64,000 bases of DNA, taken from Thermoanaerobaculia bacterium (GTDB taxonomy: Bacteria > Acidobacteriota > Thermoanaerobaculia > UBA5066). Numbering within the stretch: position 1 is the first letter of the stretch; every line of letters begins with the position of its first letter. Below the pieces are notes generated by a model. It made no database searches, was not told where the DNA came from, and worked only from the letters and a program-made list of their open reading frames with translations. Where the stretch lies: assembly GCA_038245905.1 (NCBI GenBank), contig JBBRRY010000004.1, positions 32,001-96,000 on the forward strand. Reading direction: 5' to 3'. Of the stretch, positions 75-61,881 are shown one piece after another. Position numbers and translations under genes: made by a program.

Positions 75-2072
75 GTGAGGGAAGCCGGACCGTCATTCAG
101 GCTTGGCGCGGCCAGCGGGGCCGCGCTCGTTGTGCTCGTCGTCCTCCTCGCGACGGTCGACACGCGCGCGTTCGGTCTCATTCCGGACGGTAAGGAGATG
201 CTGTCGGCATCGGCCGCCTTCTCGCGTTTCCTCGAAATCGGCGTTTCGCGCGACTTCGTCAATGCGCCGCGCCGTCCCGGAGGCGATGCCGTGTCGCGCT
301 ACGGGATGGGACTTTCCATCGCCGAGGCCGTGCCGGGAGCCGTGATGCGTGTGATCCGGATCGCCGCCCCTTCGGCGCCGTCGGCGCCCGTCTTCGTCCT
401 CTTGCCGATCGCGTGCCTCGTCGCCTCGGCATGGGCGACGGCCCGGGCCCTGCTCCTCGTCGGTGTAACGCTCCCCTGGGCCGCGGCGTCGGGCGCGGGC
501 CTCGTCCTCGCGACGCCGCTCTGGGGATACGCGGCGAGCGACTATGGTGAGCCGTTGCAGGCGTGCTGCGTTGCGATGCTCCTGCTCGCGGCCGTCGAGC
601 TCCGCGATGCCCCGGCCTCGCGCCGCTGGCAGATCGTCGCGGGGCTCGCCGCGGGGTTCGCGATTCTCACGAAGACCCTGCTGCTCATCGCGGTCGCACC
701 GTTCCTGGTCTATTTGTTTTTCGGAAGAGAGATGAGAAAGAAAGAATTCCTAGAAGGGAAGAGAGGAAACGCGTCAGCGCGGCGTGCCGCCGAGGCGGGT
801 GTTCGCCGCCCGGGGGCGCCATGGCCGCTGCTTCTTTCATTCGCAGGAGTCCTCTTTTTCTGGTCTCTCCTCGAGCTCGTCCGTTTCGGAAAGCTGTTCG
901 GCGGTTACTCCGGGGAGACGTTCACCTATCCCTTCTTCACGGGTCTTCTGCGCCTGACGCTCCTTCCGAACAAAGGCCTCTTCTGGTATGCCCCGATCGT
1001 TCTCCTCGCGCCGGTCGGCTTCGTCGCGCTGTTCCGCCGCGACGCGCGTCTCGCTTTCGCCTCCTCGGCTTCGGCCGTTTCGCTGCTCGTCGCGGCTTCC
1101 GCGTGGTGGGCGTGGGACGGGCAGGCGGGATGGGGGCCGCGCCTGCTCCTGCCCGCGCTCCCCCCCCTCGTCTTCCTTGCCGGCATCGCCTGCGCGTCGT
1201 CCTTCCGGCCTGCCCGCATCGCGGGCACGCTCGCGCTCTGCGTCGGATTGGGCGTCAATCTGCTCGGCGCCCTCGTGCCGTTTCCAGCCGTCTACGCGCT
1301 CTCGTCCGTCGTGCCGCCTCAGCCGATCGCGGAAGCGCGGGCGGAGGGAACGGCGTACGAAGTCGAACGCGGGTCGGACGGCATCTTGCGTGCCACGGCC
1401 CCGCATCACCTTTCGCTCACACCCGCATGGAGTCCGATCCGGGTTCACGCGCTTCTGCTCGCCGCGAAGCTACGGGGGAACGCCGCGGAGACTCTCTCGA
1501 GGGAGGGGTTTCCGCGTCTCGATCCGCCTTTCGGACCCGTCTTGCCGAAAGAGCCCGCTCCCGCGATGGCCCTCGCGCTTCGGCCGCTCCGCATCGGTTG
1601 GGGCCGCGAATATTTACTTGAAGGGAAAGAGAGACTCTCGGATCCGTGGGACGACGCCGCGCGTGACCAGACGATCCGCGCGATCGATGTGAAGGACTAC
1701 GTGCGGGCACAGGAGCTAGGAGAGGAAATCCTGAGAAGGAAGAACGGGGATTCGAATTCTGCGAATGACCCTCACGTTGTCGCGCTGATCGCCGAGTCGA
1801 TTCGCCTTGGCAGCGGCCGGGCCGCCGGCGCGCAATCGCTTGACTCGGGCACCGCCGCGTCCCTTTCCTACCTTTCCAGGAAATCTTCCTCTTCTTCTTT
1901 CGCCTGCAATCCCTGGATTCTCTTCGTCCGCGCGATGGCGGAGCCGCCGGGCGACTTCTCATGCATCCCCGAGCCGGGGCGGGAGGGATTCGCGCGAAGC
2001 CTCGACGCGGCGCGCCGGCGGGGCTGGAGCCTTACCTCGTGGGCGCGGGCGCTCCGGATGGGGGCGCCATAG
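75..2072 (+). CDS. Multi-pass membrane protein, probable GT-C fold glycosyltransferase (GT39/ArnT-like)
   Basis: 665 aa with many hydrophobic helices; DYGEPL, KGLFWYAP and WGPRLLLP segments typical of GT-C membrane proteins; CATAAT 6 nt before the GTG. Confidence 0.6.
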   Translation: MREAGPSFRLGAASGAALVVLVVLLATVDTRAFGLIPDGKEMLSASAAFSRFLEIGVSRDFVNAPRRPGGDAVSRYGMGLSIAEAVPGAVMRVIRIAAPSAPSAPVFVLLPIACLVASAWATARALLLVGVTLPWAAASGAGLVLATPLWGYAASDYGEPLQACCVAMLLLAAVELRDAPASRRWQIVAGLAAGFAILTKTLLLIAVAPFLVYLFFGREMRKKEFLEGKRGNASARRAAEAGVRRPGAPWPLLLSFAGVLFFWSLLELVRFGKLFGGYSGETFTYPFFTGLLRLTLLPNKGLFWYAPIVLLAPVGFVALFRRDARLAFASSASAVSLLVAASAWWAWDGQAGWGPRLLLPALPPLVFLAGIACASSFRPARIAGTLALCVGLGVNLLGALVPFPAVYALSSVVPPQPIAEARAEGTAYEVERGSDGILRATAPHHLSLTPAWSPIRVHALLLAAKLRGNAAETLSREGFPRLDPPFGPVLPKEPAPAMALALRPLRIGWGREYLLEGKERLSDPWDDAARDQTIRAIDVKDYVRAQELGEEILRRKNGDSNSANDPHVVALIAESIRLGSGRAAGAQSLDSGTAASLSYLSRKSSSSSFACNPWILFVRAMAEPPGDFSCIPEPGREGFARSLDAARRRGWSLTSWARALRMGAP

Positions 2073-3750
2073 GCGGTGCGACTCCGCGAAGGCGAATCAA
2101 CAGCTGGGCGTCGCCGAACGGCTCGACCGAGATGGCGCGCGCCTCGAATCCGCGGCGCAGCGGCGGCAGCCAGCCCCGAAGCCACACGAACTTGGGCCAG
2201 GATTCGGTGTTCTTCTCGATCGCGGCCGCCATGTCCCAGAGGAAGCGCGAGAAGAAGACCGTGTCGACCGGCGCGTCGGGGGTCATGGCCTGGCCGGCGA
2301 TTCCGGCGGCCCGCGCGCCGGACTCGTCGACGACGAGGGCCGTGACGCCGACGCGCCCGAGGTCGCCGCGCCGCACGCGCTCGAAGACGCGCCCCTGCTC
2401 CTGGCCCCAATCCACGTTCGAGTCGGAGAGGATGGCGGGGATGCCGGCAGGGCCTCCGGCGAGGACGTTGCCGAACGAGATCTCGCGGCCGAGGCGGAGC
2501 GCGGACTCTCCGGCGGCGAGGACGACGACTCCGGCGAGCACCGCGCGGAACGCTCGCGGCCGGCGGGCCAGGAGCGTCCTGCCGGCGCCGGCCGCCGCGA
2601 CGAGGAGGAACGGCACGGCGGGAAGGGCGTGCCGTACGCCGATGTTCACGTTCGAGGTGCAGGCCGCGGCGAGATACGCGCCACCGATCGCCGCCGGGAG
2701 AGCGGCGCGGGTGATGAGGAGCCGCCGGAGCCGCGAGCCACGGAAGAGGCCGAAGCCGGCGCCGAGAAACGCGGCCGTGAACGCGAGGACGGCTGCCGCC
2801 GTCAGCTTGATCCCGAGGGCCACCAGAAAGTAGAAGAGGTGTCCCTTCCCTGAGATTTCGCCGAAGAAATAGTTGAAACGTTCTCCCGGGCCCGCGACTC
2901 CCTGCACGAAGAGAAGCCCCGCACCGTACGCGGCGATCGCCTTCGGAAACGTGCGCGCGAGCGCCACGACGGCACGCTCCTGGGGCAGCCCTCCGAATTC
3001 GTGCGCGATGCCCGCCTGGAAGGCCGAATCGCTCGTACCGGCAAACGCGATGGACTGGATGGCGAACAGGGTCAGGAGGGCGATTCCAATGAGCAAGACA
3101 GCGGAGTAGAGAGCGGGAAGAGAGAAAGATTTTCTTAGAAGGTGAAGAGGGGGGCCGGAAATACCACCTGCTGCGAACCGAACCATCGCAATGACAGTGA
3201 AGACAGCGAGGAATGGGAAAGCAGAGTATTTCGACGCCATCGCAAGCCCATAGAGAATGCCGCTCGCGACGAGCCAGACTCTTTTTCGTTCTTGAGCTGC
3301 GTATTCCAGCGCGAGCGCTGCCGCGACGAGGAAGAACGTGACGAGGACGTCGCTCTGAACGAGCGTGCCGTGGCCGCGCAGCGTCGGCTCGATCGCGACG
3401 AGCCCCGCGGCGGCGAGGCCCGCGGCGTTTCCGGCGAGCGCGCGTCCAAGGAGTCCGGTCACGGCCGCGAGGGCCGCGAAGAGGAAGGGCATGGGCGCGC
3501 GGCCTGCACGCGTCTCGTCGATCTCCATCGCGGGCTTCTCGCGCGGGAGAGAGACTCCGGCGAGGAGCTTCATCAGGACGGGGTGCTCGAAGTTCGAGAC
3601 CATTCCGGGGCCGTAGCGCCACTCGCGTGCGGCGGCGAGGTGTGCGGGCTCGTCCGAGGTCGTCCAGAGGGAGAAGCGCGCGCTCTCGGCGCCCGCGAGG
3701 GCGAGACACGAGAGGATCGCGAGCGCGAATGCGAAGAGCCGCGAGGTCAC
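2032..3750 (-). CDS. GT-C fold glycosyltransferase (ArnT/PMT-like)
   Basis: TSDEPAH and FEHPVLMK after the first TM helix, SKYS, NIGVRH, DSNVDWGQ; start moved to GTG 3750 because the longer track ORF overlaps the ABC-F gene. Confidence 0.7.
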   Translation of the reverse strand: MTSRLFAFALAILSCLALAGAESARFSLWTTSDEPAHLAAAREWRYGPGMVSNFEHPVLMKLLAGVSLPREKPAMEIDETRAGRAPMPFLFAALAAVTGLLGRALAGNAAGLAAAGLVAIEPTLRGHGTLVQSDVLVTFFLVAAALALEYAAQERKRVWLVASGILYGLAMASKYSAFPFLAVFTVIAMVRFAAGGISGPPLHLLRKSFSLPALYSAVLLIGIALLTLFAIQSIAFAGTSDSAFQAGIAHEFGGLPQERAVVALARTFPKAIAAYGAGLLFVQGVAGPGERFNYFFGEISGKGHLFYFLVALGIKLTAAAVLAFTAAFLGAGFGLFRGSRLRRLLITRAALPAAIGGAYLAAACTSNVNIGVRHALPAVPFLLVAAAGAGRTLLARRPRAFRAVLAGVVVLAAGESALRLGREISFGNVLAGGPAGIPAILSDSNVDWGQEQGRVFERVRRGDLGRVGVTALVVDESGARAAGIAGQAMTPDAPVDTVFFSRFLWDMAAAIEKNTESWPKFVWLRGWLPPLRRGFEARAISVEPFGDAQLLIRLRGVAPPMAPPSGAPAPTR

Positions 3751-9782: not shown

Positions 9783-10556
9783 ATGAACCCGCGCGAATAC
9801 GAAATCATGTTCGCCCGCGAAGATGCCTACTGGTGGTATCGCGGAATGCGGTGCGTGACCCGGGCGTTCGCGCCGGGCCTCTTCGCGGCGCCTGCCGGGT
9901 CCCGGTTGCTCGACGCGGGCTGCGGTACAGGCCGCAACCTTCAGGAGCTCGAGGCCGCGGGAGGACTTGCGGTGGGCGTCGATGTTTCTCTGCGCGCGCT
10001 CGGCCTCGCGCGGCGGAGAGGCCGGACCCGGCTCGTGTGCGGCTCGATCGAGGCTCTGCCGTTTCGCGGCGGCGCGTTCCTCGGCGCGCTCTCGCGCGAC
10101 GTCCTCTACATGGTGCCCCGCCAGGAGGCCGCCCTGCGGGAGATCGCGCGAGCCCTCGAGGAAGGCGGGACGCTCGCGATCTCGTCACCCGCATTCGTCG
10201 CGCTCGCGGGCGCGCACGACGTCGCGGTCAGCGCCCTGAGACGCTACACCGCGAAAGGCCTTGAGAAGCTGCTGAAAGACGCCGGACTCTCGGTGATCCG
10301 CACGAGCTACGCCAATCTCTTCCTGGCAGGCCCTATTTGGATTCTTAGAAAGGTGACGAGAGCGAAGGCGCGCGGCCGCCCTTCCACGGAAGTCGCCTCC
10401 GAATTCCCTCTTTCTCCCAAACCATTCGAAGAAATCTTCTTCTTTCTTCTGTCTTTCGAAGCGCGCCTCGTTGCCCGCGTGCGCCTCCCGTTCGGGTCGA
10501 CGGTCTTCGTCCTGGCCGAAAAGCCCGTTCAGGGCACGAGCGTCGCGGCGAAATAG
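9783..10556 (+). CDS. Class I SAM-dependent methyltransferase
   Basis: EDAYWWYRG, LLDAGCGTG motif I, LPFGST C-terminus. Confidence 0.88.
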   Translation: MNPREYEIMFAREDAYWWYRGMRCVTRAFAPGLFAAPAGSRLLDAGCGTGRNLQELEAAGGLAVGVDVSLRALGLARRRGRTRLVCGSIEALPFRGGAFLGALSRDVLYMVPRQEAALREIARALEEGGTLAISSPAFVALAGAHDVAVSALRRYTAKGLEKLLKDAGLSVIRTSYANLFLAGPIWILRKVTRAKARGRPSTEVASEFPLSPKPFEEIFFFLLSFEARLVARVRLPFGSTVFVLAEKPVQGTSVAAK

Positions 10557-43237: not shown

Positions 43238-43253
43238 GCCAAGGAGAGACGCC

Positions 43254-45754: not shown

Positions 45755-45763
45755 GCGCGCGCT

Positions 45764-45987: not shown

Positions 45988-45991
<4 letters not shown>
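45764..45991 (-). CDS. Small hypothetical protein (75 aa)
   Basis: GTG start overlaps the pyrG stop; host-like GC3; fills the gap between convergent genes. Confidence 0.55.
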
Positions 45992-47679
<1,688 letters not shown>

Positions 47680-47718
47680 GCTACACCTCCGTCGCGGCTG
47701 AAAGGGTTGTGGTTCGGC

Positions 47719-48525: not shown

Positions 48526-48673
48526 GTTCGATAATAACATCGGCGCCCGTCGGCGAGTCAACGACCGCCGGTTCGCGCCCCGGTGTCCCCCAAAAGGTCG
48601 TCGTCACCGGCCCGGACCCGCGGGTCGATGACGACTTCAAGAGGATGGGGAGAGAGGGATTCGGGGGAGCCCG

Positions 48674-49108
48674 CTATCCGGCCACGGGTTGGGCGCGGCT
48701 TTGCGTGTCTTCGCTGGATTCGTCTTCGTCCACGAGGCCCGGGAGGGAAAGCGCGGTTGTTTCGAGCGCGCCCTCCAGCTCGCGGATGCCCTCGCGGGCC
48801 GCGACGCAGTAGGAGTTGGACTCGTCGTACCCGGAGGCGGCGACGACCTTCTCGTACGTGAGGAGGGCCTTCGTCGGTTCCACGAGCGCGAAGTGATACG
48901 TGTGCGCCACCGTCATGCGGGCCTGCAGGTCGTAGGGGTTGAGGCGCAGGATCTTCGCGAGAAACACGAGCGCGTCGTTGTAGCGCTCCTCTTCGAGCGC
49001 GACTTCGGCGCGGTGGCGGTAGAGCGCGACCTCTTCCTCGAGAGTGAAGTCCTCACGCGACGTGGCGCTGAAGGGCGACCGAAAGGACCGGAAAAGCTTT
49101 TCGATCAT
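48674..49108 (-). CDS. Small TPR-containing protein
   Basis: YNDALVFLAKILRLNP and ALLTYEKVV helical repeats; AGGAG RBS. Confidence 0.7.
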   Translation of the reverse strand: MIEKLFRSFRSPFSATSREDFTLEEEVALYRHRAEVALEEERYNDALVFLAKILRLNPYDLQARMTVAHTYHFALVEPTKALLTYEKVVAASGYDESNSYCVAAREGIRELEGALETTALSLPGLVDEDESSEDTQSRAQPVAG

Positions 49109-49351
49109 TCGCTCTCCTGACCGTTCCCGAAAGTTGTGGGGGCCGATCCGTGACCCACGATATGTTGGGGAGAGCTTAAGACTGCGGAGCGCTAAAATCA
49201 AGAGAGATTCCAGAAAAAAGAAGGCTGAAAGGCGAATAACCCTTACTTCATTCGGTCATTGCTTCTACAACTTGACCAACAGCTGGTTTCGTTAGGCAGA
49301 ACCTTCCCGCAGCCTAATTACATTCAAAGTCACTAAATTATTTATTATTAA

Positions 49352-50425
49352 TTACTTACGACGATTTGCGGCGTACTCGGCGGCCAGTAGGAAGCCTTCT
49401 CGGGACGCTGTCTCGGGGAAGCGCGAGGCGATTTCGCGGGCTCGCTCGGCGTGCGTCTCGACCATTTCGCGGGCGCGCTCGAGGGCGGAGAGGCGGTGGA
49501 CGATCTCGAGGATCTGCTCTGGCCTCACGGAGTCGAATCCCTCCTCGGCAACGACCGCCTCCACGAGCTTGCGCTCGGCGCGCGTGGCGTGCGGCAGACA
49601 GAGGATGAGAGGCAGCGTGAGCTTTCCCTCCTTGAGATCCGAGAGGACCGGCTTGCCGAGGTCGACTTCCTTCGCCGTGTAGTCGAGGACGTCGTCCTGG
49701 AGCTGGAAGGCGATCCCGAGGGACATTCCGTACTCCCAGAGCCGGGCGCCCCAGGTCTCGGCCGTCTCGTCGTACGCTTCCGACACGAGGAACGACGGGA
49801 TCTTGCACGCGCCCGCGAACAGAAGGGCTGTCTTGCGGCGGACGATGTCGAGGTAGCCCTCGAGCGTGAGGTCGAGCAGTCCACGCCTCTCGGCACCGAT
49901 GATCTCGCCTTCGGTCATGCGGAGCGTCACATCCGAAAGGAGGCGTAGGACGCGCAGATCGCCCTCTTCGAGGGCGATCTCCATCGATTTCATGTAAAGA
50001 AAATCGCCGAAGAGAACGGTCAGCTCGTTGCCCCAGCGGCGATTCACGCTTGGCCGGCCACGGCGCAGCTCGGCGTCGTCGATGATGTCGTCGTGGACGA
50101 GCGTCGCCGTGTGGATGAACTCGATCATCGCGGCGTAGTTCACGTCGCGCTCGCCGTCGTAGCCGAGGAGATGCGACCCCAGGAGGAGGAGCGCGGGCCG
50201 GATTCTCTTGCCCCCGCCCTCGACGAGATAGTCGCCGATGAGCGAGATCGTCGGAATCCCGGAGCGCGTCCGCTCCTGGAGGCGCGTCTCGACGAGCCGC
50301 AGCTTGCCTTCGATCGGCGCGAGAGCCGAAAGCAGACGCCGCCCGTTCTCCCGCTCTTCGGCGGGAAGGGTGGCGACGAGCAGGCGGTCTTTCAGTGAGG
50401 TCTGGAACATTTCGACGGGCTGCAT
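49352..50425 (-). CDS. ispB: Polyprenyl diphosphate synthase
   Basis: GGKRIRP, HDDIID, RRG, FQLQDDVLD, DLKEGK. Confidence 0.9.
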   Translation of the reverse strand: MQPVEMFQTSLKDRLLVATLPAEERENGRRLLSALAPIEGKLRLVETRLQERTRSGIPTISLIGDYLVEGGGKRIRPALLLLGSHLLGYDGERDVNYAAMIEFIHTATLVHDDIIDDAELRRGRPSVNRRWGNELTVLFGDFLYMKSMEIALEEGDLRVLRLLSDVTLRMTEGEIIGAERRGLLDLTLEGYLDIVRRKTALLFAGACKIPSFLVSEAYDETAETWGARLWEYGMSLGIAFQLQDDVLDYTAKEVDLGKPVLSDLKEGKLTLPLILCLPHATRAERKLVEAVVAEEGFDSVRPEQILEIVHRLSALERAREMVETHAERAREIASRFPETASREGFLLAAEYAANRRK

Positions 50426-50476
50426 CTTACAGCCCCCTCCGACCCGGATTACGCCCGTATGGGTGGGCAGGATGCT

Positions 50477-50968
50477 CTAGCCCCGGAAGTTCGTGAACTG
50501 GAGGGGGATGCCGAAGTCGGCGCCCCGAAGAAGAGCGATGACGGCCTGTAGATCGTCCCTCTTCTTGCCCGAGACCCGCAGCTGCTCGCCCTGGATCGCG
50601 ACCTGCACCTTCAGCTTGCTGTCCTTGATCGCCTTGACGATCTCCCGGGCCTTCTCGGACTCGATGCCCTGGCGGATCGTGACCACCTGGCGCACGGTAC
50701 CTTTCGTCGCGGGCTCGATCGTGCCGTAGTCGAGGGACTTCAGGGAGACGCCGCGCTTCACGAGCTTGGTCTGGAGAATGTCCGTCACGGCCTTCAGGCC
50801 GAATTCGTCGTTTGCCGTGAGAGTGAGCTCCTTGTCCTTGTGCTCGATCCCGGCGGCGCTGCTCTTCAGGTCGTAGCGCTGCGCGGTTTCCTTCTGAGCC
50901 TGCGCGACCGCGTTCCCGACTTCGGGAAGGTTGACCTCGGAAACAACGTCGAATGTGGGGTCTGCCAT
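50477..50968 (-). CDS. yajQ: YajQ nucleotide-binding protein
   Basis: FDVVSE, RYDLK, RVSGKKRDDLQ, LQFTNFR. Confidence 0.96.
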   Translation of the reverse strand: MADPTFDVVSEVNLPEVGNAVAQAQKETAQRYDLKSSAAGIEHKDKELTLTANDEFGLKAVTDILQTKLVKRGVSLKSLDYGTIEPATKGTVRQVVTIRQGIESEKAREIVKAIKDSKLKVQVAIQGEQLRVSGKKRDDLQAVIALLRGADFGIPLQFTNFRG

Positions 50969-50972
50969 GGCT

Positions 50973-51650
50973 TCACTCCGAGAGGATCTTCGTGCCCGCG
51001 GGGGGCGCGAGGGCGAAGTCCGAGTCGGGGCGCTTCGGCCCGGACATCTTCTGCGTAAACGTGAACGCCGTGCGGTTGCCGGCGGCGTCCACGAGGATGA
51101 GCCTCTTCACGTCGCCGGTCGCGGCGACGAGGAGCATGAGCGACTTCGGGTCGCCGCCGGCGCGCGGGGTGAGCGTGAGCTCGACGAGGCCGGTGTCCGT
51201 CGGGGCGGCGCGTGCGGAATAGCGCGCGAGGAGCTCCTCGGTCGACTCGAGGAAAACGAGCGGCAGGCGCGCGCGCTCTTCAGGCCGGAGGGTCCTGAGG
51301 ACGAGCTGCCGGTCGGCCGCCACGTACTGGCGGGCAAACTTCCCGTCGAACGTGAAGACCTTTCCCTCAGGGCCGTCGTAGTCGAACCGCACGCGGTCGG
51401 GCGCCTGGAGGATGAGCCGGCCGGTCTCGGGCGCGGTTTCCGCGAAACCCGCGGGCGCGTACGTCTGGACGAACGTGCAGTTGACCGAGGGAGAGGATGA
51501 GTATGCTTTTCGGATGCTCGCGAGAACGGCGTGCGCGTCGAGGGAGGCGGTCCCAACCGTACCCGGTGTCGCGGCCGGCTTCGCCGGCCGTGCTTCGAGG
51601 GTGAGAAAAACGAGGAGAAGACAGACGAGGGATTTCGCGGGCATATTCAC
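50973..51650 (-). CDS. lolA: Outer-membrane lipoprotein carrier LolA-like
   Basis: Signal peptide, FVQT, RFDY, FDGK, GNRT, F..PPAG. Confidence 0.75.
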   Translation of the reverse strand: MNMPAKSLVCLLLVFLTLEARPAKPAATPGTVGTASLDAHAVLASIRKAYSSSPSVNCTFVQTYAPAGFAETAPETGRLILQAPDRVRFDYDGPEGKVFTFDGKFARQYVAADRQLVLRTLRPEERARLPLVFLESTEELLARYSARAAPTDTGLVELTLTPRAGGDPKSLMLLVAATGDVKRLILVDAAGNRTAFTFTQKMSGPKRPDSDFALAPPAGTKILSE

Positions 51651-51675
51651 CTTCTAAGAAGCTCTTCTCTTTCTT

Positions 51676-53220
51676 TCAATGCCTGAAGTGTCTCTTCCCC
51701 GTGAAGACCATCGTGATGCCCGCGGCGTCCGCCGCGGCGATGACGTCGGGATCCTTGACGGAGCCGCCGGGTTGGATGACCGCCGTGACGCCCGCGCCCG
51801 CGAGAACCTCGAGGCCGTCCGGGAACGGGAAGAATGCGTCGGAAGCCGCCACGGCGCCTCTCGCTCGCTCTCCGGCTTTCGCAATTGCATCCCGGCAGGC
51901 GTCCACACGGCTCGTGCGCCCTCCCCCGATGCCGTACGTCGCGGACTCGCCCGCGACGACGATGCCATTCGAGACGACGCCTCGGAGGACGAGGTTCGCG
52001 AAGCGCATCGCACGCGTCTCGGCGTCGGTCGGTGCGCGCTTCGTGACGACCTTCCACGCGCTTTCCTCGTCCGGCAGAAGGTCGCCTTCCTGTACGAGGA
52101 GGCCGCCGTCGATGCCGCGCGCCTCGAGGCGCGGGCGCGGCCCGTGCTCCGCCTCGACGGTCAGGACGCGGAGATTCGGTTTCTTCGCGAGGACGGGCTT
52201 TGCGTCGTCCGTCACGGCGTGGACGACGACGACCTCGAGGAATCGCGACGTGAGCGTGCCGGCGGCCTCCGCATCGAGCGTGCCCGTCCAGGCGACGACG
52301 CCGCCGAATCCCGCGATCGGGTCGGAGGCCCACGCGGCTTCGAACGCCTCGGCCATCGTGCGGCCCTTCGCGGCCCCCGCGGGGATTCGGTGCTTCACGA
52401 TCGTGAGGGCGTTCGCTCCCACGATGCGTGACGTGTAGAGAGCGGCGTCGGCGTCGAGGAAGTTGTTATACGAGAGCTCCTTCCCCTGCACGAAGCGGTA
52501 ACGTGAGAGGGCCGGCGCCGCCGCGGCCGCGTCGACATAGAGGGAGGCCTTCTGGTGCGGGTTTTCCCCGTAACGGAGACCGGCTCCGAGCGAAAAGGTC
52601 AGCGACAGGCGCTCCGGAAACGTCTCGCCCGGCCCCGAGGAGAACCAGCGGGCGATCGCGGCGTCGTACGCCGCCGTGTGCCGGAAGACCTTCGCGGCGA
52701 GGCGGCGGCGCGTCTCGTCCGAGAGGGTCCCACCCGTCCGCAGGAGCTCCTCGGCAATCGCGGGATAGTCGGCCGGGTCGCACACGACGCCGACGTGCGC
52801 ATGGTTCTTGGCCGCGGCCCGGAGAAGCGACGGCCCGCCGACGTCGATCTTCTCGATGGCCTCGGCGAAGGTCACGCCGGCCCGCGCGACGGTCTCCTCG
52901 AACGGGTAGAGGTTCACGACGACGAGGTCGATGGGGGAGACCCCGTTCGCGGCCGCCTCGCCGAGGTCGCGGTCCAGGGAGCGGTCGAAGAGGATGCCCC
53001 CAAAGAGCTTCGGATGCAGCGTCTTCACCCGACCGCCGAACACCTCCGGGAAACCCGTGACGTCGGAAACGCTCGTGACCGAAAGATCGGACGCGGCGAG
53101 TTGCGCCGCCGTCCCTCCCGTCGAGACGAGGCCGAACCCAATCCCGGTCAGAACGTGCGCGAAATCCACGAGGCCGGTGCGATCCGAGACGGAGAGAAGC
53201 GCGATTCGGGTGTTACTCAC
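51676..53220 (-). CDS. purH: AICAR transformylase/IMP cyclohydrolase
   Basis: ALLSVSD, RVKTLHP, LRYGENPHQ, SDAFFPF, RHFRH. Confidence 0.97.
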   Translation of the reverse strand: MSNTRIALLSVSDRTGLVDFAHVLTGIGFGLVSTGGTAAQLAASDLSVTSVSDVTGFPEVFGGRVKTLHPKLFGGILFDRSLDRDLGEAAANGVSPIDLVVVNLYPFEETVARAGVTFAEAIEKIDVGGPSLLRAAAKNHAHVGVVCDPADYPAIAEELLRTGGTLSDETRRRLAAKVFRHTAAYDAAIARWFSSGPGETFPERLSLTFSLGAGLRYGENPHQKASLYVDAAAAAPALSRYRFVQGKELSYNNFLDADAALYTSRIVGANALTIVKHRIPAGAAKGRTMAEAFEAAWASDPIAGFGGVVAWTGTLDAEAAGTLTSRFLEVVVVHAVTDDAKPVLAKKPNLRVLTVEAEHGPRPRLEARGIDGGLLVQEGDLLPDEESAWKVVTKRAPTDAETRAMRFANLVLRGVVSNGIVVAGESATYGIGGGRTSRVDACRDAIAKAGERARGAVAASDAFFPFPDGLEVLAGAGVTAVIQPGGSVKDPDVIAAADAAGITMVFTGKRHFRH

Positions 53221-53815
53221 GGATGGAGAGCGGTCCTTTGGATTCGGGGTGCTGGCGGACGATCGAGGCGTCGCCTCCCGCGGCGTTCCAGATCCAGGCG
53301 AAGAGGCGGGTCGAAAGCGTGACAGTCGCGTCGTAACGCTCACGCGCGGTGGTCGCGGGGAGCGGCGCCGCGGCCAGGGTTTCGGGCGCGGCGAAGGGTT
53401 CCGCCGGATAGCCGAGGAAGCGGGAGGCCTTCGAGGCGTTGCCTGGCGCGCCTCCCTGCGGAGGCAGCGCGAGGGCGAACTCGTGGACGATCCCGCCCAT
53501 CTGATAGACGATTTCGTCGAAGGCCGTATGCCGGCGAATGGCCTCGGCGAGCGCACGCGCGCCGCGGGCCGCGGCCGCGCGATGGGCGTTCGCGTCGCGC
53601 GTGCCGTGTTCTGCGGCCGCCGCGTCGCTCACGCCCTGCATGAGCCGGCGGCTGTGCCGCGCGAGCTGACGCTTGAAGTCCGGGGGCGCGAACGAGGAGG
53701 CGTCGGCCGCCATTCGGGCCTCGTCCGCGACGCTCCAGCGCACGAGCTCCGCCGCGCGCGCGCCGGACGCGAAGAGAACGGCGGCGAGACAGGCGGCGGA
53801 CGCGTGGCGTTTCAC
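53213..53815 (-). CDS. Secreted hypothetical protein
   Basis: Signal peptide, helical character; RBS; overlaps the purH start. Confidence 0.65.
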   Translation of the reverse strand: MKRHASAACLAAVLFASGARAAELVRWSVADEARMAADASSFAPPDFKRQLARHSRRLMQGVSDAAAAEHGTRDANAHRAAAARGARALAEAIRRHTAFDEIVYQMGGIVHEFALALPPQGGAPGNASKASRFLGYPAEPFAAPETLAAAPLPATTARERYDATVTLSTRLFAWIWNAAGGDASIVRQHPESKGPLSIRE

Positions 53816-53828
53816 GGTTTCTCCTCTT

Positions 53829-56807
53829 CTAGAAGATCTTCAGGATGTTCAGCGAAAGGACGACGCCCGTCTGCCCGCGGTTGCGGCCGGAGACGGGCGT
53901 TCCGGCATCGAGCCGGATCAGCGTCGCCCACGGCCCGGCGAACTCGCCCGAGATTCCCGCGCCGCTGAAGTAGGCCCAGTCGAGGCCCGCGGCCCGGTCC
54001 CTCACGCGCGCATCCTCGTAGATCGCCTCGAGGCGGAAGGCGCTCCCGATGACATAACCGTACGCGACCTTCGACGTGACCGCTTCCTCGGCACGCAGGG
54101 CACCCGACCGGAAGCCGCGCAGCGACGTTCCGCCGAAGAAGCCGAAGGTGTACTTCGAGAAGCGATCCGTGTTGTCGGAGCCGACGTACCCGAGCGACGC
54201 GCGCACGCGCTGGAAGCGCGGCAGGTGGAAGTCTTTCTGAATCTCGGCGCCCCAGGTCGTGAAGACGTCCTTGCCCGGGTCGTAGTCCGGGTTACCCGCG
54301 AAGCCCCACGGATCCCACTGCGACCTCTTGTTCCACGCCCACCGGCCCGTAACCGCCCACCCGCGCCAGTCCCAGGCGAGCTGGCCCTCGAGGCGTGTGA
54401 GCCAGTGGTCCGATGGAATCGCGAACGCCGATGATGTTTCGACGTCGTCGACCGCGAAGTCCCGGTGCGACTCGGTGACCGTCCCCGTGAGCTTGATGTG
54501 GCGCGCGATCGGGACGCCCGCCTTGAACGCGGCCGCGAATGACCGGCTCTTCACCCGCTGCGCCTTGTCTTCCTCGCCGGAGACGAAGAGCGCGTCCGTG
54601 CCCCGAAGCGCGATGCCGAAGACGTCGACGCCGACGTCGACTGGCGAGCCGAAGAGCCTCGGCTGGCTCCACGAGGCCGCGAGCAGGACGCCGCCGAAGA
54701 GGACCTGGAACTGGTCATGGCGTTTGCTCGCGTCGAGGTCGATCCAGTAGACGCCGAGGAGGGGGAGCGGATAGTCGTATGCGCCATCGTAGAAAAGGCC
54801 GCCGAGCCCGAAGAGCTTGCCGTGTTTCGCGTCCTCCGTGACGCGGCGGCCGCCGTCCTTCGTCTTCTCGAGGTAACGAACACCCTTCTCGGTCTCACGC
54901 ACCATCGTGTCCTTCGACGCGAAAGTCTCTTCGCGCGCCGCGCGGAAGGCGGGATCGTCGAGCCGGATGTCGGTGAGCACGCTTTCGCGCTCGATCACGG
55001 TCGTGCGCGAAAACGTTTTGAGGATCCACTGGCCCGTCGTGCGCGTCGGGAGGCGCAGCGGCGGCCCGCCGTCGGGTGCGGGCACATCCGTGAAGTCGGC
55101 CGTCTCGTCCACGGCCTGAATCTCGGCCGTGAGGTTCAGCTGCCGCGTCCGGACGCGGACGGCCGCGAACCCGTCTCGCGCGATCCACACGCGACCCGCG
55201 TACACGGGCTTGTCCGTCACGGCGACGCGCGGCTCGAAGTCGAGCGCCCAGCAGGGAATGCCCCGCACGGTCTCTTCGCCGACGAGCGCGTAGCGGTATG
55301 TGTCGTCGAGCGTGAGGGCGAGCGGCATGTCCGAGACCTTCTCGGGCTGCAGGAGCGGGAGCTCGGGGAGCTTTTTTCCCTTCCAGCGGACGCCGTTGAA
55401 GTACGCGTCGTGCCACGCCCAGTCGAAGCCCGAGCCCCTCTCGTAGAAGAACGGCCCGGCGAGCGTGAGGTCGATCGTGTTGCCGAGGTTCGCGAAGCGA
55501 AAGCGCATCGAGAGCGAGTTCGTCGCCGAGAGCGTCTTCCAGCGCGCATCGCGGGCCGCCCGCCACGCCTGGTGCTGCGCGAGAATCTCCTCCGCCGTGA
55601 TCCCGCGCGCGGCGGCGACCCCGACCGCGGCCTTCGGGGCCTCGGCCGGGGCTTTCTCGCGCGCCGTGAGGCGCACGGCGAGGGGACCATTCGCGAGCGA
55701 GAGGGTGAGGCGTACGGGGACCGCGCCTGCAGGGATCTCGAGCTTCCTCGAGGCCCCCGTCGCGAGCTCGAAAATCTCCGCCAAGCCGTACGGCGTCGCA
55801 TCCAGGGTGACCGTCACGGGCCCCGCCGGAGCGGGCGCGCCGCCCTTCGTGCCGGGAACGAGGACGACACCGCCCAGGTCGGCGCCCGAGACGACGCGGA
55901 ATGCGTCGCGCGGCGTTCCGTCGGACGCCGCGACGGACACGGCGCGGGTGTCGGCGCCGAAGTCGCCCGCGACCATGCGCGCGAAGCGCTCGAGCGTCGC
56001 GTCTTCGGCGGCCGACCACGCGGGTGTCGCGACGACGAACGGAAGGTTCTCGGACGCGAACCGCGCGGAAGCAGCGATGAGCGCGCCGGGCGTGCGGACG
56101 GAGGCACCGAGATCGACGAGCCCCGGCTTGCCGAATGCGACGGCGTCGATCGCTTTTCGGACCTCAGACGCATCAACCTGTGCGATTTCGGTCACGCCGA
56201 CCATGTCGAGATAGGCCGTGTTTTCTTCTGAAAGGAGGAGACGGTCGGCGGGTGCGATGAGCGGGCCCGAAGCGTCGGGTGCGGCCGCGAACGCAATCAG
56301 GGCGTGGGGAGCTGCGGCGCGCGCGCCCGCGGCCACCTTTCTAAGAAAATACGCCCGTGCCTTGGGGTCGCCGGAAACGGGCGTCGCGAAGTCGATGGAT
56401 ACGAGATCCGCCGTCCTTGCCTCTCTCAGAATCTCTCCGATCCCCGGCCAGAGGTCGTCCACGTTTGCCGCTTCGGCGGCTCGTACATCGGCCGGCACGG
56501 CCACATTGGGCAGCGCGAGCGCGAGCCCCCAGCGCCAGCCGGCGGTGTGGGCGTGCTCCGCGAGCTCGCGGACGCCGGCGATCGCCGCCGGCCTGTCCAC
56601 GCCCCGCGCGTCGGGGTCGAGTCGCAGCAAGAGGCCCGGAGCGTTCGGCGAATGGGCGGCGATCGGCAGGCCCGAGATGCGGGCGATCCTCGGGTCGCCG
56701 GGCGAGACCGCGAGCCACGGCGCCGCGTATGGGCGGGGCGTCACCCCCGCCGCGGCGTGAGAGAGGAGCGCCCCGAGGAGAGCGGCAAGAGCCCGGTGCT
56801 GCGTCAC
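53829..56807 (-). CDS. Large secreted / outer-membrane protein with probable C-terminal beta-barrel
   Basis: Signal peptide; alternating aromatic strands; ends SLNILKIF. Confidence 0.7.
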   Translation of the reverse strand: MTQHRALAALLGALLSHAAAGVTPRPYAAPWLAVSPGDPRIARISGLPIAAHSPNAPGLLLRLDPDARGVDRPAAIAGVRELAEHAHTAGWRWGLALALPNVAVPADVRAAEAANVDDLWPGIGEILREARTADLVSIDFATPVSGDPKARAYFLRKVAAGARAAAPHALIAFAAAPDASGPLIAPADRLLLSEENTAYLDMVGVTEIAQVDASEVRKAIDAVAFGKPGLVDLGASVRTPGALIAASARFASENLPFVVATPAWSAAEDATLERFARMVAGDFGADTRAVSVAASDGTPRDAFRVVSGADLGGVVLVPGTKGGAPAPAGPVTVTLDATPYGLAEIFELATGASRKLEIPAGAVPVRLTLSLANGPLAVRLTAREKAPAEAPKAAVGVAAARGITAEEILAQHQAWRAARDARWKTLSATNSLSMRFRFANLGNTIDLTLAGPFFYERGSGFDWAWHDAYFNGVRWKGKKLPELPLLQPEKVSDMPLALTLDDTYRYALVGEETVRGIPCWALDFEPRVAVTDKPVYAGRVWIARDGFAAVRVRTRQLNLTAEIQAVDETADFTDVPAPDGGPPLRLPTRTTGQWILKTFSRTTVIERESVLTDIRLDDPAFRAAREETFASKDTMVRETEKGVRYLEKTKDGGRRVTEDAKHGKLFGLGGLFYDGAYDYPLPLLGVYWIDLDASKRHDQFQVLFGGVLLAASWSQPRLFGSPVDVGVDVFGIALRGTDALFVSGEEDKAQRVKSRSFAAAFKAGVPIARHIKLTGTVTESHRDFAVDDVETSSAFAIPSDHWLTRLEGQLAWDWRGWAVTGRWAWNKRSQWDPWGFAGNPDYDPGKDVFTTWGAEIQKDFHLPRFQRVRASLGYVGSDNTDRFSKYTFGFFGGTSLRGFRSGALRAEEAVTSKVAYGYVIGSAFRLEAIYEDARVRDRAAGLDWAYFSGAGISGEFAGPWATLIRLDAGTPVSGRNRGQTGVVLSLNILKIF

Positions 56808-57893
56808 TTACTTCCGGAAGGCCTTCGACGGAGCCCTGGGCTCCGGTGCGGGGAGCGCCACGGGAGCCGGTCCGGCTGGCACGACGACGTCGCCCGTCGG
56901 AAGACCGAGGTTCGCCCGGATCTTCTTCTCGATCTCGGCGGCGATGTCGGGGTTGTCGCGGAAGAACTGCTTGGAGTTTTCGCGGCCCTGCCCAAGGCGG
57001 ATATCGCCGTAGCTGAACCAGGCGCCGGACTTCTCGACGATCTTCATCTCGATCCCGATGTCGATGAGCTCGCCCGTCTTCGAGATGCCCTCGCCGTACG
57101 CGATGTCGAACTCGGCGAACCGGAAGGGGGGAGCGACCTTGTTCTTGACGATCTTGACCTTCGTGCGGCTTCCGACGACGACCTCGCCGTCCTTGATGGC
57201 ATTGATGCGCCGGATGTCGATACGGACCGACGAATAGAACTTCAAGGCCCGGCCGCCCGTCGTCGTCTCTGGGTTCCCGAACATGACGCCGATCTTTTCG
57301 CGGATCTGGTTGATGAAGATGAGGGTCGTGTTCGATTTCGAGACGACCGCCGTGAGTTTGCGCATGGCCTGCGACATGAGGCGCGCCTGCAGGCCCACCA
57401 CGGCGTCGCCCATCTCGCCTTCGAGCTCGGCCTTCGGAACGAGCGCCGCGACGGAGTCGATGACGACGACGTCGATCGCGGCCGACCGCACGAGCGCCTC
57501 GGCGATCTCGAGCGCCTGTTCGCCCGAGTCGGGCTGGGACACCATGAGGTTGTCGACGTCGACGCCGAGCTTCTTGGCGTAGTCGGGGTCCATCGCGTGC
57601 TCGGCGTCGATGAAGGCGGCGAGCCCGCCACGCTTCTGCGCCTCGGCGATGACGTGGAGGGTCAGGGTCGTCTTGCCCGAAGACTCCGGCCCGAAGACTT
57701 CGATGACACGGCCGCGCGGGATGCCGCCGATTCCCAAGGCGGCGTCCACGCCGATCGAGCCCGTCGAGATGCACTGGATGACGGTGTGTGGCTTGTCACC
57801 GAGACGGACGAGAGCGCCTTTGCCGAACTGCCGGTCGATCTGCTGGAGCGCTTGCTCGAGTGCTTTCTGCTTTTCCTTGTTCACTTCGACCAT
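56808..57893 (-). CDS. recA: Recombinase A
   Basis: [35 protein letters not shown]. Confidence 0.99.
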
Positions 57894-57940
57894 TTGGTCT
57901 CCTTCAAGAAGAGAGGCGGATTATAGGAAGAGAAAGAGGA

Positions 57941-57977
57941 GGATTTTGATTTGGATTCGGATTTCGGATTCGGATTT
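57941..57977. repeat. Six imperfect tandem GGATTY units
   Basis: GGATTT TGATTT GGATTC GGATTTC GGATTC GGATTT. Confidence 0.75.
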
Positions 57978-58115
57978 CTTAGAAGGGTGAATGAGGCTGA
58001 GGCGCTCGAAGGACGTCGAGGCGCCACACTCTGCACCGGCGCCACTCGACCTTCTAAGAAAATCTTCTCTGGGGGCGAAACGGCCTACGATGGCGTCGCC
58101 GAGCGGAAGGAACGT

Positions 58116-58661
58116 GTGAAAGTTAGGTCCGATATCTCCGAAACGCAAGGAATTCTTCGCCCGTGGCCCGAGGTTTTCGCGGCCTCGCGCGTGACGACCC
58201 TCGTCGCGACGTGGTTCGGGACCGGGCTCCTTCCGAAGGCTCCGGGCACATGGGGCAGTCTGGCCGCGATCCCGGCCGCCCATCTCGTCGCGACGATCTG
58301 GGGAGTCTCGGGCCTCATCGGCTTCGCGCTCGCGGTCACGTTTGTTGGCGTGCACGCGGCGGGCGAGACGGCGCGCCTCCGCGGCATCGGCGATCCGCCG
58401 GAAGTCGTCGTGGACGAGGTGGCGGGGCAGTCCATCGCGCTTCTGCCGGTCTACGCGCTCGTGCCGCCCGAGGCCACGCTCTTCCGGATCGGCGCCGTGC
58501 TCCTTGCGTTCGCCCTCTTTCGCGTTCTCGACGTCTGGAAGCCCGGCCCAATAGGCGCGCTCGAGCGATTGCCGCGAGGCTGGGGTGTGATGATGGACGA
58601 CGTTCTCGGCGGTGCCGTTGCGGGAGCTTGCGTCGGCGCCGCGCTTCTCCTCTGGCGATGA
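58116..58661 (+). CDS. pgpA: Phosphatidylglycerophosphatase A
   Basis: APGTWGS, VVDEVAG, FRVLDVWKP, GVMMDD; start uncertain. Confidence 0.9.
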   Translation: MKVRSDISETQGILRPWPEVFAASRVTTLVATWFGTGLLPKAPGTWGSLAAIPAAHLVATIWGVSGLIGFALAVTFVGVHAAGETARLRGIGDPPEVVVDEVAGQSIALLPVYALVPPEATLFRIGAVLLAFALFRVLDVWKPGPIGALERLPRGWGVMMDDVLGGAVAGACVGAALLLWR

Positions 58662-59545
58662 TCGAGAGCGCCCTCTCCGGCTTGCGCGCGGTCGTCCGCG
58701 AGAACGTCCCGCTTTCCGGCCGGACGACGCTCCGAATTGGCGGACCGGCCCGGTATTTCGTGGAAGTCCACGACGCGGAGGCGCTAGCGGCTCTCCTCCG
58801 CGCGGGCCGCGCCGCAGGGCTGCCTGTTCTCGCGCTCGGGAAGGGATCGAACCTCCTCGTTCCCGACGCGGGATTCCCAGGAGTCGTTTTCGCCCTCGCG
58901 GGCGACTTCTTGAGGACGCGGATCGAACCGCCGGAGGTCATGGCGGGAGGCGGGGTCTCGCTCATGTCGCTTGCCTCCCGGACGCAGAGGGCGGGCCTCT
59001 CCGGTCTCGAGAACCTGTCCGGCATTCCGTCCTCGCTCGGCGGGGCCGTGCGCATCAACGCCGGGGCCTACGGGTCGGAGCTGTTCGACGTCCTCGTGTC
59101 GGTCGACCTCGTCTCGGGCGGTGGAGAGCAACGCACGGATTCCGCTTCGGCGATCGCGCACGGCTACCGGTGGACGGCGCTCTCGGACTGCGACGACGTC
59201 GTGACCGGGGCGCGCCTCCGCCTCACGCCGAACCCCCCCGACGAGATCGCATCGCGGATGGCGGAGGTCACCGCGAAGAGAAAAGTCGCCCTGCCGAAGC
59301 AGCCGAATGCCGGTTCGATTTTCAAGAACCCGCCGGGCCTCTTCGCAGGGAAGCTGCTCGAGGAGTGCGGTTTGAAGAGTCGCCGCATCGGAGGCGCCCA
59401 GATCTCGCCCGTCCACGCGAACGTAATCGTCAACGTCGGCGGCGCGACGGCGGCGGACGTCACGTCGCTCATGGAAGAGATGAAAAGGGCCGTGAAAGAC
59501 AGGTTCGGGATCGAATTGGCAGCCGAAATCCGACTTCTCGGATAA
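58658..59545 (+). CDS. murB: UDP-N-acetylmuramate dehydrogenase
   Basis: RIGGPA, GKGSN, GIP, NAGAYG, AGSIFKNP, HANVIVN. Confidence 0.95.
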   Translation: MIESALSGLRAVVRENVPLSGRTTLRIGGPARYFVEVHDAEALAALLRAGRAAGLPVLALGKGSNLLVPDAGFPGVVFALAGDFLRTRIEPPEVMAGGGVSLMSLASRTQRAGLSGLENLSGIPSSLGGAVRINAGAYGSELFDVLVSVDLVSGGGEQRTDSASAIAHGYRWTALSDCDDVVTGARLRLTPNPPDEIASRMAEVTAKRKVALPKQPNAGSIFKNPPGLFAGKLLEECGLKSRRIGGAQISPVHANVIVNVGGATAADVTSLMEEMKRAVKDRFGIELAAEIRLLG

Positions 59546-60724: not shown

Positions 60725-60783
60725 CCTTTTCGAAAGCCCCGCCTCGCAATCGCCGGAGCCGCGGCGCCCGTACAATCTCGGGA

Positions 60784-61881
60784 ATGTCGAGCACCGCCGG
60801 AGTCTGCGCGCTCATCCTCGCCGGCGGGAGCGGCACAAGGCTGTGGCCCCGCTCGACGGACGAAAGGCCGAAGCCTTTCCTTGCGCTGTCGGGCGGAGAG
60901 TCGCTCCTTCGGGAGACCTGGCGGCGCGCCGCCGGCCTCGCCGGGAAGGACAACGTCTTCGTCTCGGGCCGCGCGTCGCACGAGGCGCTCCTCGTCGCAG
61001 AGCTCCCGGAAGTCCCGCGCGAGCGCCTTGTCCTCGAGCCCACGCGCCGCAACACTGCCCCCGCGATCGCCCTCTCGGCGCTGGCGGCCTCAGAGGACGC
61101 GCCCGACGTCGTTCTCGCCGTGCTGCCGTCTGACCAGGCGGTGCGCGATGAACCGGCGTTCCTCTCCGCTCTCCGCGCGGCCGTCTCGGCGGCGCGGACG
61201 CGCGAGGCGTTCGTCACACTCGGGATTCCTCCGACGCGGCCCGAGGCGGGCTTCGGATATATGGAAGTTGAAGAGCACAAGGAAGGGGAAAGCGATTTTT
61301 CTTTGAATGGGAAGAGTAGGAGCGAGGCCTCGCTCCTGCGGGTGGTGCGGTTCGTCGAGAAGCCCAGCCAGACTCGCGCGGAGGAGTTTCTTGCGTCGGG
61401 GCGCTTCCTCTGGAACGCCGGCATCTTCGTATTCCGGACGTCCTGGCTCTTCGAAGAGATGGAGAGGGTCTGTCCGGATATCCTGAAGGTCGCCCGCCGC
61501 GCGCATGCAGCGAGAAAAGCGGCGGATTCTTCCTCCTTCAAAGAAATCTTCTCCTCCTCCCCGTCCGTCTCCATCGATGTCGCCGTGATGGAGAAAGCAC
61601 GAACCGTGCTCACAGTTCCGTGTGCCTGCGGCTGGAGCGACCTGGGTTCGTGGGAAGCCGTGTTCGAGTTCCGGGGCGGATCGTCCGCGCGGAACGTTCT
61701 CGAGGGCCCGGCCGATTCGGTGGACGGCTCGGGCAACCTCGTGCTGGCGGAGGCGAGGCCGGTGCGCGTCGTCGGCCTCTCGGACATCGTGGTCGTGGAA
61801 TCTCCAGGCGGCCTCCTCGTCATGCGCCGGGGCGCGTCGGACGCGCTTCGCCGGAGCGTGGAAAAAGGGCTCAGGGGATGA
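60784..61881 (+). CDS. manC: Mannose-1-phosphate guanylyltransferase
   Basis: ILAGGSGTRLWP, RNTAPAI, FVEKP, WNAGIF, WSDLGSW. Confidence 0.92.
   Translation: MSSTAGVCALILAGGSGTRLWPRSTDERPKPFLALSGGESLLRETWRRAAGLAGKDNVFVSGRASHEALLVAELPEVPRERLVLEPTRRNTAPAIALSALAASEDAPDVVLAVLPSDQAVRDEPAFLSALRAAVSAARTREAFVTLGIPPTRPEAGFGYMEVEEHKEGESDFSLNGKSRSEASLLRVVRFVEKPSQTRAEEFLASGRFLWNAGIFVFRTSWLFEEMERVCPDILKVARRAHAARKAADSSSFKEIFSSSPSVSIDVAVMEKARTVLTVPCACGWSDLGSWEAVFEFRGGSSARNVLEGPADSVDGSGNLVLAEARPVRVVGLSDIVVVESPGGLLVMRRGASDALRRSVEKGLRG

Follow-up and report, generated by a model that had tools for sequence, protein, structure and literature searches.

A dispersed AT-rich motif was analyzed in a 64,000-nt stretch of DNA from a Thermoanaerobaculia bacterium of the phylum Acidobacteriota (assembly GCA_038245905.1, contig JBBRRY010000004.1 or C4, positions 32001-96000), which is called the window throughout. 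The assembly (genome G000) is a metagenome-assembled genome (MAG) of 3.80 Mb in 113 contigs with 67.8% G+C, is 96% complete, and does not contain a 16S rRNA gene. The genes in the window include aroA, pyrG, kdsB, purH, lolA, recA, and murB. A first-pass annotation, made from the sequence alone, had listed 11 exact copies of the core TTCTWAGAA, and all of them were recovered with their coordinates and orientations. The center base is T in five copies (plus orientation; 3132, 10342, 43667, 47735, 57976) and A in six copies (minus orientation; 34682, 43756, 44152, 51652, 56339, 58052). In 100 dinucleotide shuffles of the window the mean number of copies was 0.06 and the maximum was 2, and 20 matches with at most one mismatch were found, while 2.31 were expected. 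The core together with its conserved flanks is referred to as an arm.

Six pairs of arms that face one another, a plus arm followed by a minus arm, were found in the window. Two of them lie within one gene for an ATP-grasp/CoA-ligase-like protein (43526-45754). Pair 1 (43637-43794) has its cores at 43667-43675 and 43756-43764, with a distance of 89 bp, and pair 2 (44048-44190) has the core TTCTTTGAA at 44078-44086 and the minus core at 44152-44160, with a distance of 74 bp. The nucleotidyl-transferase gene (60784-61881) contains a pair at 61269-61575 (plus arm with TTCTTTGAA at 61299-61307, minus arm at 61537-61545, 238 bp), and the 3′ part of a methyltransferase gene (9783-10556) contains a pair at 10312-10463 (plus core at 10342-10350, minus core TTCTTCGAA at 10425-10433, 83 bp). 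The pair at 47705-47816 (plus core at 47735-47743, minus core TGCTTAGAA at 47778-47786, 43 bp) lies in the tail of kdsB just before pyrG, and the pair at 57946-58090 (plus core at 57976-57984, minus core at 58052-58060, 76 bp) lies in the spacer between the divergent genes recA and pgpA. In contigs of a related strain from the sequencing runs X2 and X3, 17 nt within 47752-47770, in the spacer of the kdsB/pyrG pair, are swapped for 48 other letters.

Genome-wide, 149 exact cores were found, 76 in forward and 73 in reverse orientation. For a codon-aware null model, synonymous codons were shuffled inside each of 3,179 crude gene calls, so that the protein and the codon usage of each gene were retained. 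The gene calls contain 92 cores, compared to 3.3 ± 1.3 (maximum 6) in 10 shuffles, and in the window the respective values are 9 and 0.10 (maximum 2) in 200 shuffles. This null is conservative, because the amino acids that are imposed by the motif are retained. The enrichment that the first-pass annotation had suspected held under this model, and its view that the signal resides in the DNA and not in a protein motif agrees with the usage of all six reading frames, the equal numbers on both strands, and the excess over the codon-aware null. An assembly artefact was excluded, as the motif is present in all 18 other genomes of the genus as well as in independent Logan contigs from runs X2 and X3, which span 43400-44233 with about 95-97% identity (contigs from runs X1, X2, X3, and X7 were used for presence only).

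Alignment of the genomic copies showed that the arm is about 55 nt long and directional. Its elements are, in order, a purine tract (about 25-30 nt), GAT, the core TTCTT[A/T/C]GAA, and GGTGAAGAG. When the 149 sites were oriented by their center base, the purine tract often opened with TTCGGA-like units. On the 5′ side the core is preceded by G/A/T/T, while on the 3′ side it is followed by G (64%), G (94%), and T/G-G/A-A-A-G-A-G, and the purine bias persists for about 18 nt inward of the core. The asymmetric, purine-rich flanks that had been described for the window are thus a property of all 149 copies. The same flanks also surround variant cores, namely 119 copies of TTCTTTGAA, 43 copies of TGCTTAGAA, and part of the 161 analyzed copies of TTCTTCGAA. 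The consensus GAAGATT-TC-TTAGAAG is a mirror repeat, and therefore controls with reversed patterns are somewhat elevated in this genus (g1). A position matrix, trained on 311 sites and circular for these sites, yielded 443 arms with at least 20 bits in G000 compared to 65 in the reversed genome, and 343 compared to 18 with at least 25 bits.

The relative orientation of neighboring arms turned out to be highly restricted. Among neighbors with a distance of at most 250 bp, 109 were of the type plus then minus, 4 of the type minus then plus, 11 were both plus, and 5 both minus. In the facing orientation, the purine tracts form the outer sides and GGTGAAGAG the inner sides. Facing pairs of this kind account for at least 218 of 442 arms. 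The 224 solo arms showed the same bias, because a partner with at least 5 bits was found in front of 104 of them and behind 8, and the median score of the best partner is 1.0 in front and -17.5 behind. As weak partners are situated in front of the solo arms, most units are pairs; the working unit consists of two facing arms, and most arms are probably paired. The core-to-core distance is 28-238 bp, with a median of 111 bp and 10th and 90th percentiles of 58 and 175 bp. The pair distances showed neither a helical period of 10-11 bp (Rayleigh p > 0.07) nor a preference for multiples of 3 bp (42/31/36), and no motif was found in the spacers, the composition of which is typical of the genome. About 333 units are present in G000, one per 11 kb, with mild clumping (variance/mean of 1.79 in 20-kb bins). 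The motif had been called polarized, and this is correct for the single arm; the pairing was absent from the first-pass annotation, and so were the variant cores TTCTTTGAA, TTCTTCGAA, and TGCTTAGAA and the restriction to a single genus.

The window also contains arms that were classified as single. A strong one (3102-3158, plus, core at 3132-3140, 44.5 bits) lies antisense in a PMT_2 glycosyltransferase-like gene (2032-3750). A minus arm at 34664-34720 (core at 34682-34690) covers the last codons of a GntR-family gene and is located 22 nt before the start of an ABC ATPase gene, and another minus arm at 51634-51690 (core at 51652-51660) has its purine tract directly 3′ of the purH stop codon, upstream of lolA. 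The minus arm at 56321-56377 (core at 56339-56347, 17.7 bits) lies in an open reading frame (ORF) of 992 amino acids (53829-56807), and in relatives this position is occupied by TGCTTAGAA or weaker forms. Eleven near matches had been listed in addition. Seven of them have one mismatch (747, 10425, 32376, 44078, 47778, 61299, 61537), and three others have two mismatches and nevertheless reach 18-24 bits with the position matrix (1874, 14577, 32111). A near match at 1729 was not recovered, and the closest weak matrix match is at 1614. The near-match arm TTCCTAGAA (717-773, plus, core at 747-755, 31.8 bits) lies in the ORF 132-2072, and the arm TTCTTTGAG (14547-14603, plus, core at 14577-14585, 24.4 bits) lies in the 5′ part of aroA (14385-15686). 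The arm TTCCTGGAA (1856-1912, minus) is weak, with 22.8 bits. Two further weak arms, at 32111 (minus, 18.5 bits) and 32376 (plus, 14.2 bits), are oriented back-to-back at 32093-32402 in the ORF 31757-33718, and their membership is doubtful. The ORFs 132-2072 (646 amino acids) and 53829-56807 had good coding scores and matched no Pfam family at E ≤ 1e-5.

Next, the relationship between the two arms of a pair was analyzed. Partner arms were not more alike than arms from different pairs, with z values of 0.8, 0.0, 2.2 (core), and 0.8 by region, and also after separation into intragenic, short, and long pairs z was at most 2.0. For the 38 intragenic pairs, the number of G·U-tolerant differences was 268 on the mRNA strand, compared to 256.6 ± 10.7 (no excess), and 236 on the antisense strand, compared to 231.6 ± 9.9. 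The lack of partner-specific likeness indicates that each arm is held to the consensus and not to its partner, and a hairpin with covarying arms was rejected for the set as a whole. An all-versus-all BLAST of the arm regions revealed similarities of only 30-60 nt, and thus the arms are not recent copies of one another. The exception was a group of paralogous genes that have the arm at the same codons. An arm pair at the same codons was found in paralogues on contigs C11 (~59932), C24 (~11542, 14193, 27684), and C25 (~29579), which, judged by the stretch LKVLPEDFLEGEE, presumably resemble Ser/Thr kinases; in the genome G171 of the sister genus g10, TTCTTCGAA is present at the corresponding position of the kinase-like gene. 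In silico folding did not yield uniform results. The pair at 47735/47778 (z of -3.26 and -2.82) and the pair at 57976/58052 (z of -3.20 and -2.60) were predicted to form long hairpins on either strand, whereas the two pairs in the ATP-grasp gene folded no better than shuffled sequences (z of -0.03 and -0.10).

The first-pass annotation had placed most copies inside coding sequences. This applies to many of them, whereas some are situated at gene junctions (47735/47778, 34682, 51652) or in the recA-pgpA spacer (57976/58052). In G000, DNA called as coding contains 9.2 arms per 100 kb and the remaining DNA 44.9, figures that are affected by the crude gene calls, which label 93% of the genome as coding and thus overestimate this fraction. 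At least 38 of the 109 pairs are intragenic, meaning that one open frame with coding signal spans both arms, and 18 of the classed pairs are located between genes on the same strand. Within genes, the arms are uniformly distributed along the gene length. All six reading frames are used (49, 33, 33, 48, 23, and 59 arms), and the sixth base of the core is adapted to them. It is never A in the two frames in which A would result in TAG or TAA (0 of 33 and 0 of 48), where T or C is present instead, and it is never T in the frame in which T would result in TGA (0 of 33). The two densest 20-kb bins contain ribosomal protein, his, aro, lys/dap, and tRNA-synthetase genes.

How arms arise could be deduced from comparisons with relatives. 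In the ATP-grasp gene, codons of 15 orthologues from the genus were aligned, and most of them have GAA GAT TTC TTA/TTG GAA GG together with the partner arm at pair 1, the spacer of which encodes the conserved VVLKIASPDLAHKSDVGG. G017, G013, and G009 have GC-rich codons and an equal length at this position, showing that the arms arose by substitution and not by an insertion or deletion (indel). The encoded residues are LSKNLSLSFSP with the motif and LARILAPLSP without it. In these orthologues a pair has either both of its arms or neither of them; G017 and G009 lack pair 1, and G017 retains pair 2. The codon TTA has a frequency of 0.31 per 1000 codons in long ORFs, yet it is used at the leucine of the arm in 7 of the 12 motif-bearing orthologues. 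The amino acid identity is 0.676 in the arms and 0.747 elsewhere in this one gene, and thus the arms lie at the less conserved residues. The orthologue is broken by stop codons (one TGA, one TAA) or split in two frames in G018, G006, G003, and G007, which are genomes with few contigs; these breaks may be due to indel errors of long reads or may be real. Both modes of origin were found in the nucleotidyl-transferase gene. The arm at 61537 originated by substitution, while the arm at 61299 lies in a loop insertion that is absent from G003 and from five other genera and has a variable length within the genus.

Spacers between genes also showed insertions. The entire block ahead of recA is missing in the sister genus g10. 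The first arm was present in all five genomes of the genus that were compared, in degenerate form in G017, while the second arm together with a pyrimidine tract (about 75 nt) was present in only two of the five, G000 and G014. In 13 of 16 loci of the family, recA has an exact copy of the -10-like box CTATAATCCGCC some 25-45 nt ahead of its start (57894-57960 in the window); G003 and G164 have close variants, and G166 has none. In G000 and G014 the second arm and the pyrimidine tract adjoin this box, so that whatever had been used as the -35 region was displaced. A GC-rich hairpin at 58005-58033 adjoins the arm at 58052 and shows compensatory changes, from GGCGCC..GGCGCC in G000 to GCGGGC..GCCCGC in G014. 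The arm between purH and lolA is present in G017, G011, G008, and G009, and is deleted in G003.

The motif is restricted to one lineage. The 18 other genomes of the genus contain 79-346 exact cores, a four-fold range. In a sample of 151 genomes from the class, the core was raised in all 10 genomes of genus g1 including G000 (79-264 copies) and in none of the 141 others; in the few genomes outside g1 with about 50 copies, the reversed control word was as common or even commoner. The tallies for the families f2 and f3 include the genomes G019 and G024, and the limit to the genus is independent of both. A 13-mer with C in the core, ATTTCTTCGAARG, was found in 12 of 12 g1 genomes (19-48 copies), in 7 of 8 g10 genomes (2-14 copies), and in 1 of 21 genomes from the eight other genera, and controls were not found at all. 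The g10 genome G171 was analyzed over 200 kb, a biased sample that had been picked around such matches. Of its 22 matrix hits, 16 have TTCTTCGAA as the core with unchanged flanks, and several are arranged as facing pairs. In G022, which belongs to another family, 200 kb yielded no matrix hit. The C-core form was also present at both arm positions of the nucleotidyl-transferase gene in the g10 genome G174. The occurrence of the C-core form in g10 indicates that the element predates the split between g1 and g10, and in g1 it has expanded and become richer in AT.

The first-pass annotation did not recognize the motif as a described site, and a search of the full-text literature on TTCTTAGAA or on Thermoanaerobaculia genomes, judged from the abstracts, likewise did not yield a published description. 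We tentatively put forward, at somewhat less than an even chance, that it is a two-site recognition element in double-stranded DNA. The strict orientation, the lack of a fixed spacing, the mutual independence of the arms, and their occurrence in all six frames together point to a factor that reads duplex arms face to face. Each arm would be a directional recognition site of about 55 bp in double-stranded DNA, and the functional unit would be two such arms that face one another across 28-240 bp of ordinary DNA, with the purine tracts outward. We infer that the reader would be a lineage-specific factor, most likely a protein, that would act on duplex DNA and would bind each arm separately, and two bound copies would have to face one another to act. 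The geometry might resemble a transposase or recombinase that meets two inverted ends, or two polar sites that bound a segment. Units would build up wherever constraint allows, by insertion between genes and by rare-codon substitution or surface-loop insertion within genes, and selection or a copying bias would then keep them at the consensus. Several observations weigh against this proposal. A reader was not found, nor is any candidate gene associated with the motif. A full-length element with arm ends was not found either. Of three arm pairs in G011 with a spacing in the kb range, the two that were examined contain etfA and lysA, respectively, and no transposase. A spacing from 28-50 bp to 240 bp without helical phasing fits poorly to a rigid protein bridge or loop. 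Conservation of synonymous sites in orthologues had been proposed as a check, and in the ATP-grasp gene no excess was found. Among same-residue pairs of 11 orthologues, the fraction of identical codons was 0.622 in the arms and 0.628 elsewhere, so that extra purifying selection on synonymous sites was not demonstrated there, though rare codons like TTA persist. In addition, the arm density drops with increasing codon bias of the host gene, with 15.0 arms per 100 kb in the lowest quintile and 4.0 in the highest, although miscalled ORFs may raise the density at the low end. This drop and the four-fold variation of the copy number among species of the genus (79-346) would equally suit a tolerated selfish or driven sequence.

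The closest known analogue is a DNA-uptake sequence, which the first-pass annotation had named as one alternative. The arms would then be a mark of self favored by the machinery for DNA uptake or recombination, and would have built up by point mutation together with biased uptake and recombination, i.e. by molecular drive; this explanation appears unlikely. In the accessible parts of two studies, uptake sequences are described as lying to 34.5-65% in ORFs, at poorly conserved residues, with 765-1,892 copies per genome of about 2 Mb (PMC2817400), and as forming dialects and inverted pairs at terminators (PMC3630211). Compared with these descriptions, the arms resemble the uptake signal sequences (USS) of Pasteurellaceae and the DNA uptake sequences (DUS) of Neisseriaceae in being a genus-specific word with a dialect in the sister genus, in having hundreds of copies equally distributed over both strands, in having been written into genes by substitution where conservation is weak, or in loops, in being five times denser outside genes, and in the folding of intergenic inverted pairs as hairpins. 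Homologues of competence proteins are also present, namely ComEC in 12 of 12 genomes of the genus as well as DprA, two secretins, and a ComEA-like HHH_3 protein, but genera that lack the motif have competence genes, ComEC among them, to the same extent (37 of 41 genomes). We know of no report of sequence-preferring natural transformation in Acidobacteriota. Known uptake sequences work as single copies, with inverted pairs as a special case at short distance between genes, whereas the unit here is a facing pair with 28-240 bp between the arms, also inside genes, and the ratio of 109 facing to 4 back-to-back neighbors is left unexplained. Furthermore, the arm is about 55 nt long and includes a purine tract of low complexity, the motif is 10-50 times less dense, with about one exact core per 25 kb, and in the crude gene calls the arms are not depleted in genes with atypical codons, but the trend is opposite. 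A decayed selfish repeat that spread by transposition and is now represented by relics, some of them in frame, would account for the inverted arms, the indels in the spacers at recA and lolA, the copy number variation, and the arm in the variable loop, and is nevertheless rather improbable. REP doublets or REPINs (pairs of repetitive extragenic palindromic sequences) are also short inverted units with a spacer, occur in hundreds per genome, and persist vertically within a lineage (PMC3337134). However, they are extragenic, each REP is palindromic, the doublet forms a hairpin, and a single-copy transposase of the RAYT type is present, whereas the arms are not palindromic, at least 38 of 109 pairs are intragenic, and the partners do not covary. 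A Y1/RAYT transposase (PF01797) had no match in G000. Among 12 g1 genomes only 1 had a match, a weak one in G014, compared to 25 of 29 genomes from the other nine genera of family f1. Identity with REPINs was rejected on the basis of the missing cognate Y1 protein, the intragenic pairs, and the non-matching halves. Rickettsia palindromic elements (RPEs) insert in frame into genes, as stated in the accessible part of a further study (PMC10969869), and the arm in the in-frame loop insertion of a housekeeping gene resembles them or an intragenic miniature inverted-repeat transposable element (MITE). An RPE is an insertion of about 150 bp that encodes a conserved peptide, while here only the arms of 30-60 nt are common to the units, which, paralogous genes apart, are unlike along their length; the spacers consist of host DNA that differs from unit to unit and is in part conserved coding sequence, the six frames yield no single peptide, and the ATP-grasp gene has the same length as its motif-free orthologues. 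MITEs and RPEs were therefore rejected, with indels seen in spacers and in one loop, and so was an autonomous element, because no young long copies were seen and the similarity ends at the borders of the arms.

An RNA-level element, in which the arms would pair in the transcript of either strand and would terminate transcription in both directions, mark a site of processing, or form a stabilizing hairpin, is about as improbable as a relic repeat, or slightly more so. The unit is symmetric, and transcripts of both strands contain a purine arm, a spacer, and a pyrimidine- or U-rich arm, as in bidirectional intrinsic terminators with a GC-rich stem. The two intergenic pairs folded better than shuffles on both strands (z of -2.6 to -3.3), a terminator scan caught one of them, many pairs (18 of those classed) separate genes on the same strand, and upstream of recA a hairpin with compensatory changes follows the arm. 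Intergenic pairs may well have acquired a secondary role as hairpins or terminators, irrespective of what primarily reads the motif. In contrast, the core and its flanks are far more specific than a terminator would need, pairs with 100-240 nt of coding sequence as the spacer fold no better than expected by chance, and the two tested intragenic pairs have z values of about 0. Covariation of the partners and G·U asymmetry on the mRNA strand are lacking, and a terminator or cleavage site within the intragenic pairs, the spacers of which encode conserved protein, would be harmful. The arm is no special complement of the ribosome either, because the 3′ ends of the 16S rRNA are canonical (GGATCACCTCCTTTCTAAG) in four genomes of the genus, and an altered anti-Shine-Dalgarno sequence was rejected. 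A promoter was rejected as well, since no sigma-70-like sites were found in 43000-59000 and, by eye, the arm does not seem to fit a -10 or -35 element. The least probable explanation is a chromosome-organizing site or a polar guide. As a genome-wide word at the level of DNA that is indifferent to gene boundaries, the motif had been compared to matS, parS, and the sites of SlmA and Noc. These analogies failed, because the arms are asymmetric, about 330 units and not tens are present, and no regional confinement was seen; in the near-complete genome of the relative G011, among 100 of 170 copies, the positions extend from 0.16 to 2.99 Mb of a 3.88-Mb contig, with dnaA on another contig. Polar words like Chi or KOPS (FtsK-orienting polar sequences) were rejected, as there is no strand skew (76:73), the GC skew of the window is steadily positive with arms on both strands, and the opposite orientations within facing pairs cancel polarity.

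Words that are written through the genes of a genome are rare, and each of them led to a mechanism, Chi to RecBCD, USS and DUS to uptake receptors, KOPS to FtsK, and REP to RAYT. The strict two-site geometry described here is not explained by any of these mechanisms, and it occurs in a phylum that is uncultured yet widespread in soil and sediment. The practical consequences concern the annotation of such MAGs, because the arms are AT-rich patches with rare codons and many stops that mislead gene callers and frame predictions, and they account for variable loop insertions in conserved enzymes. The sister genus with its sparse C-core form makes the origin datable and a phyletic search for the reader gene practical. 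It is possible, though on balance doubtful, that the facing arms are the cis half of an undescribed genome-wide system of recent origin, datable between g10 and g1, in which a dedicated reader on two facing arms would mark or handle the cell's own DNA in uptake, recombination, or repair, or would set boundaries for a machine that tracks along DNA. If this is true, then this one acidobacterial lineage would harbor a system strong enough to rewrite amino acids and to force rare codons into housekeeping genes.

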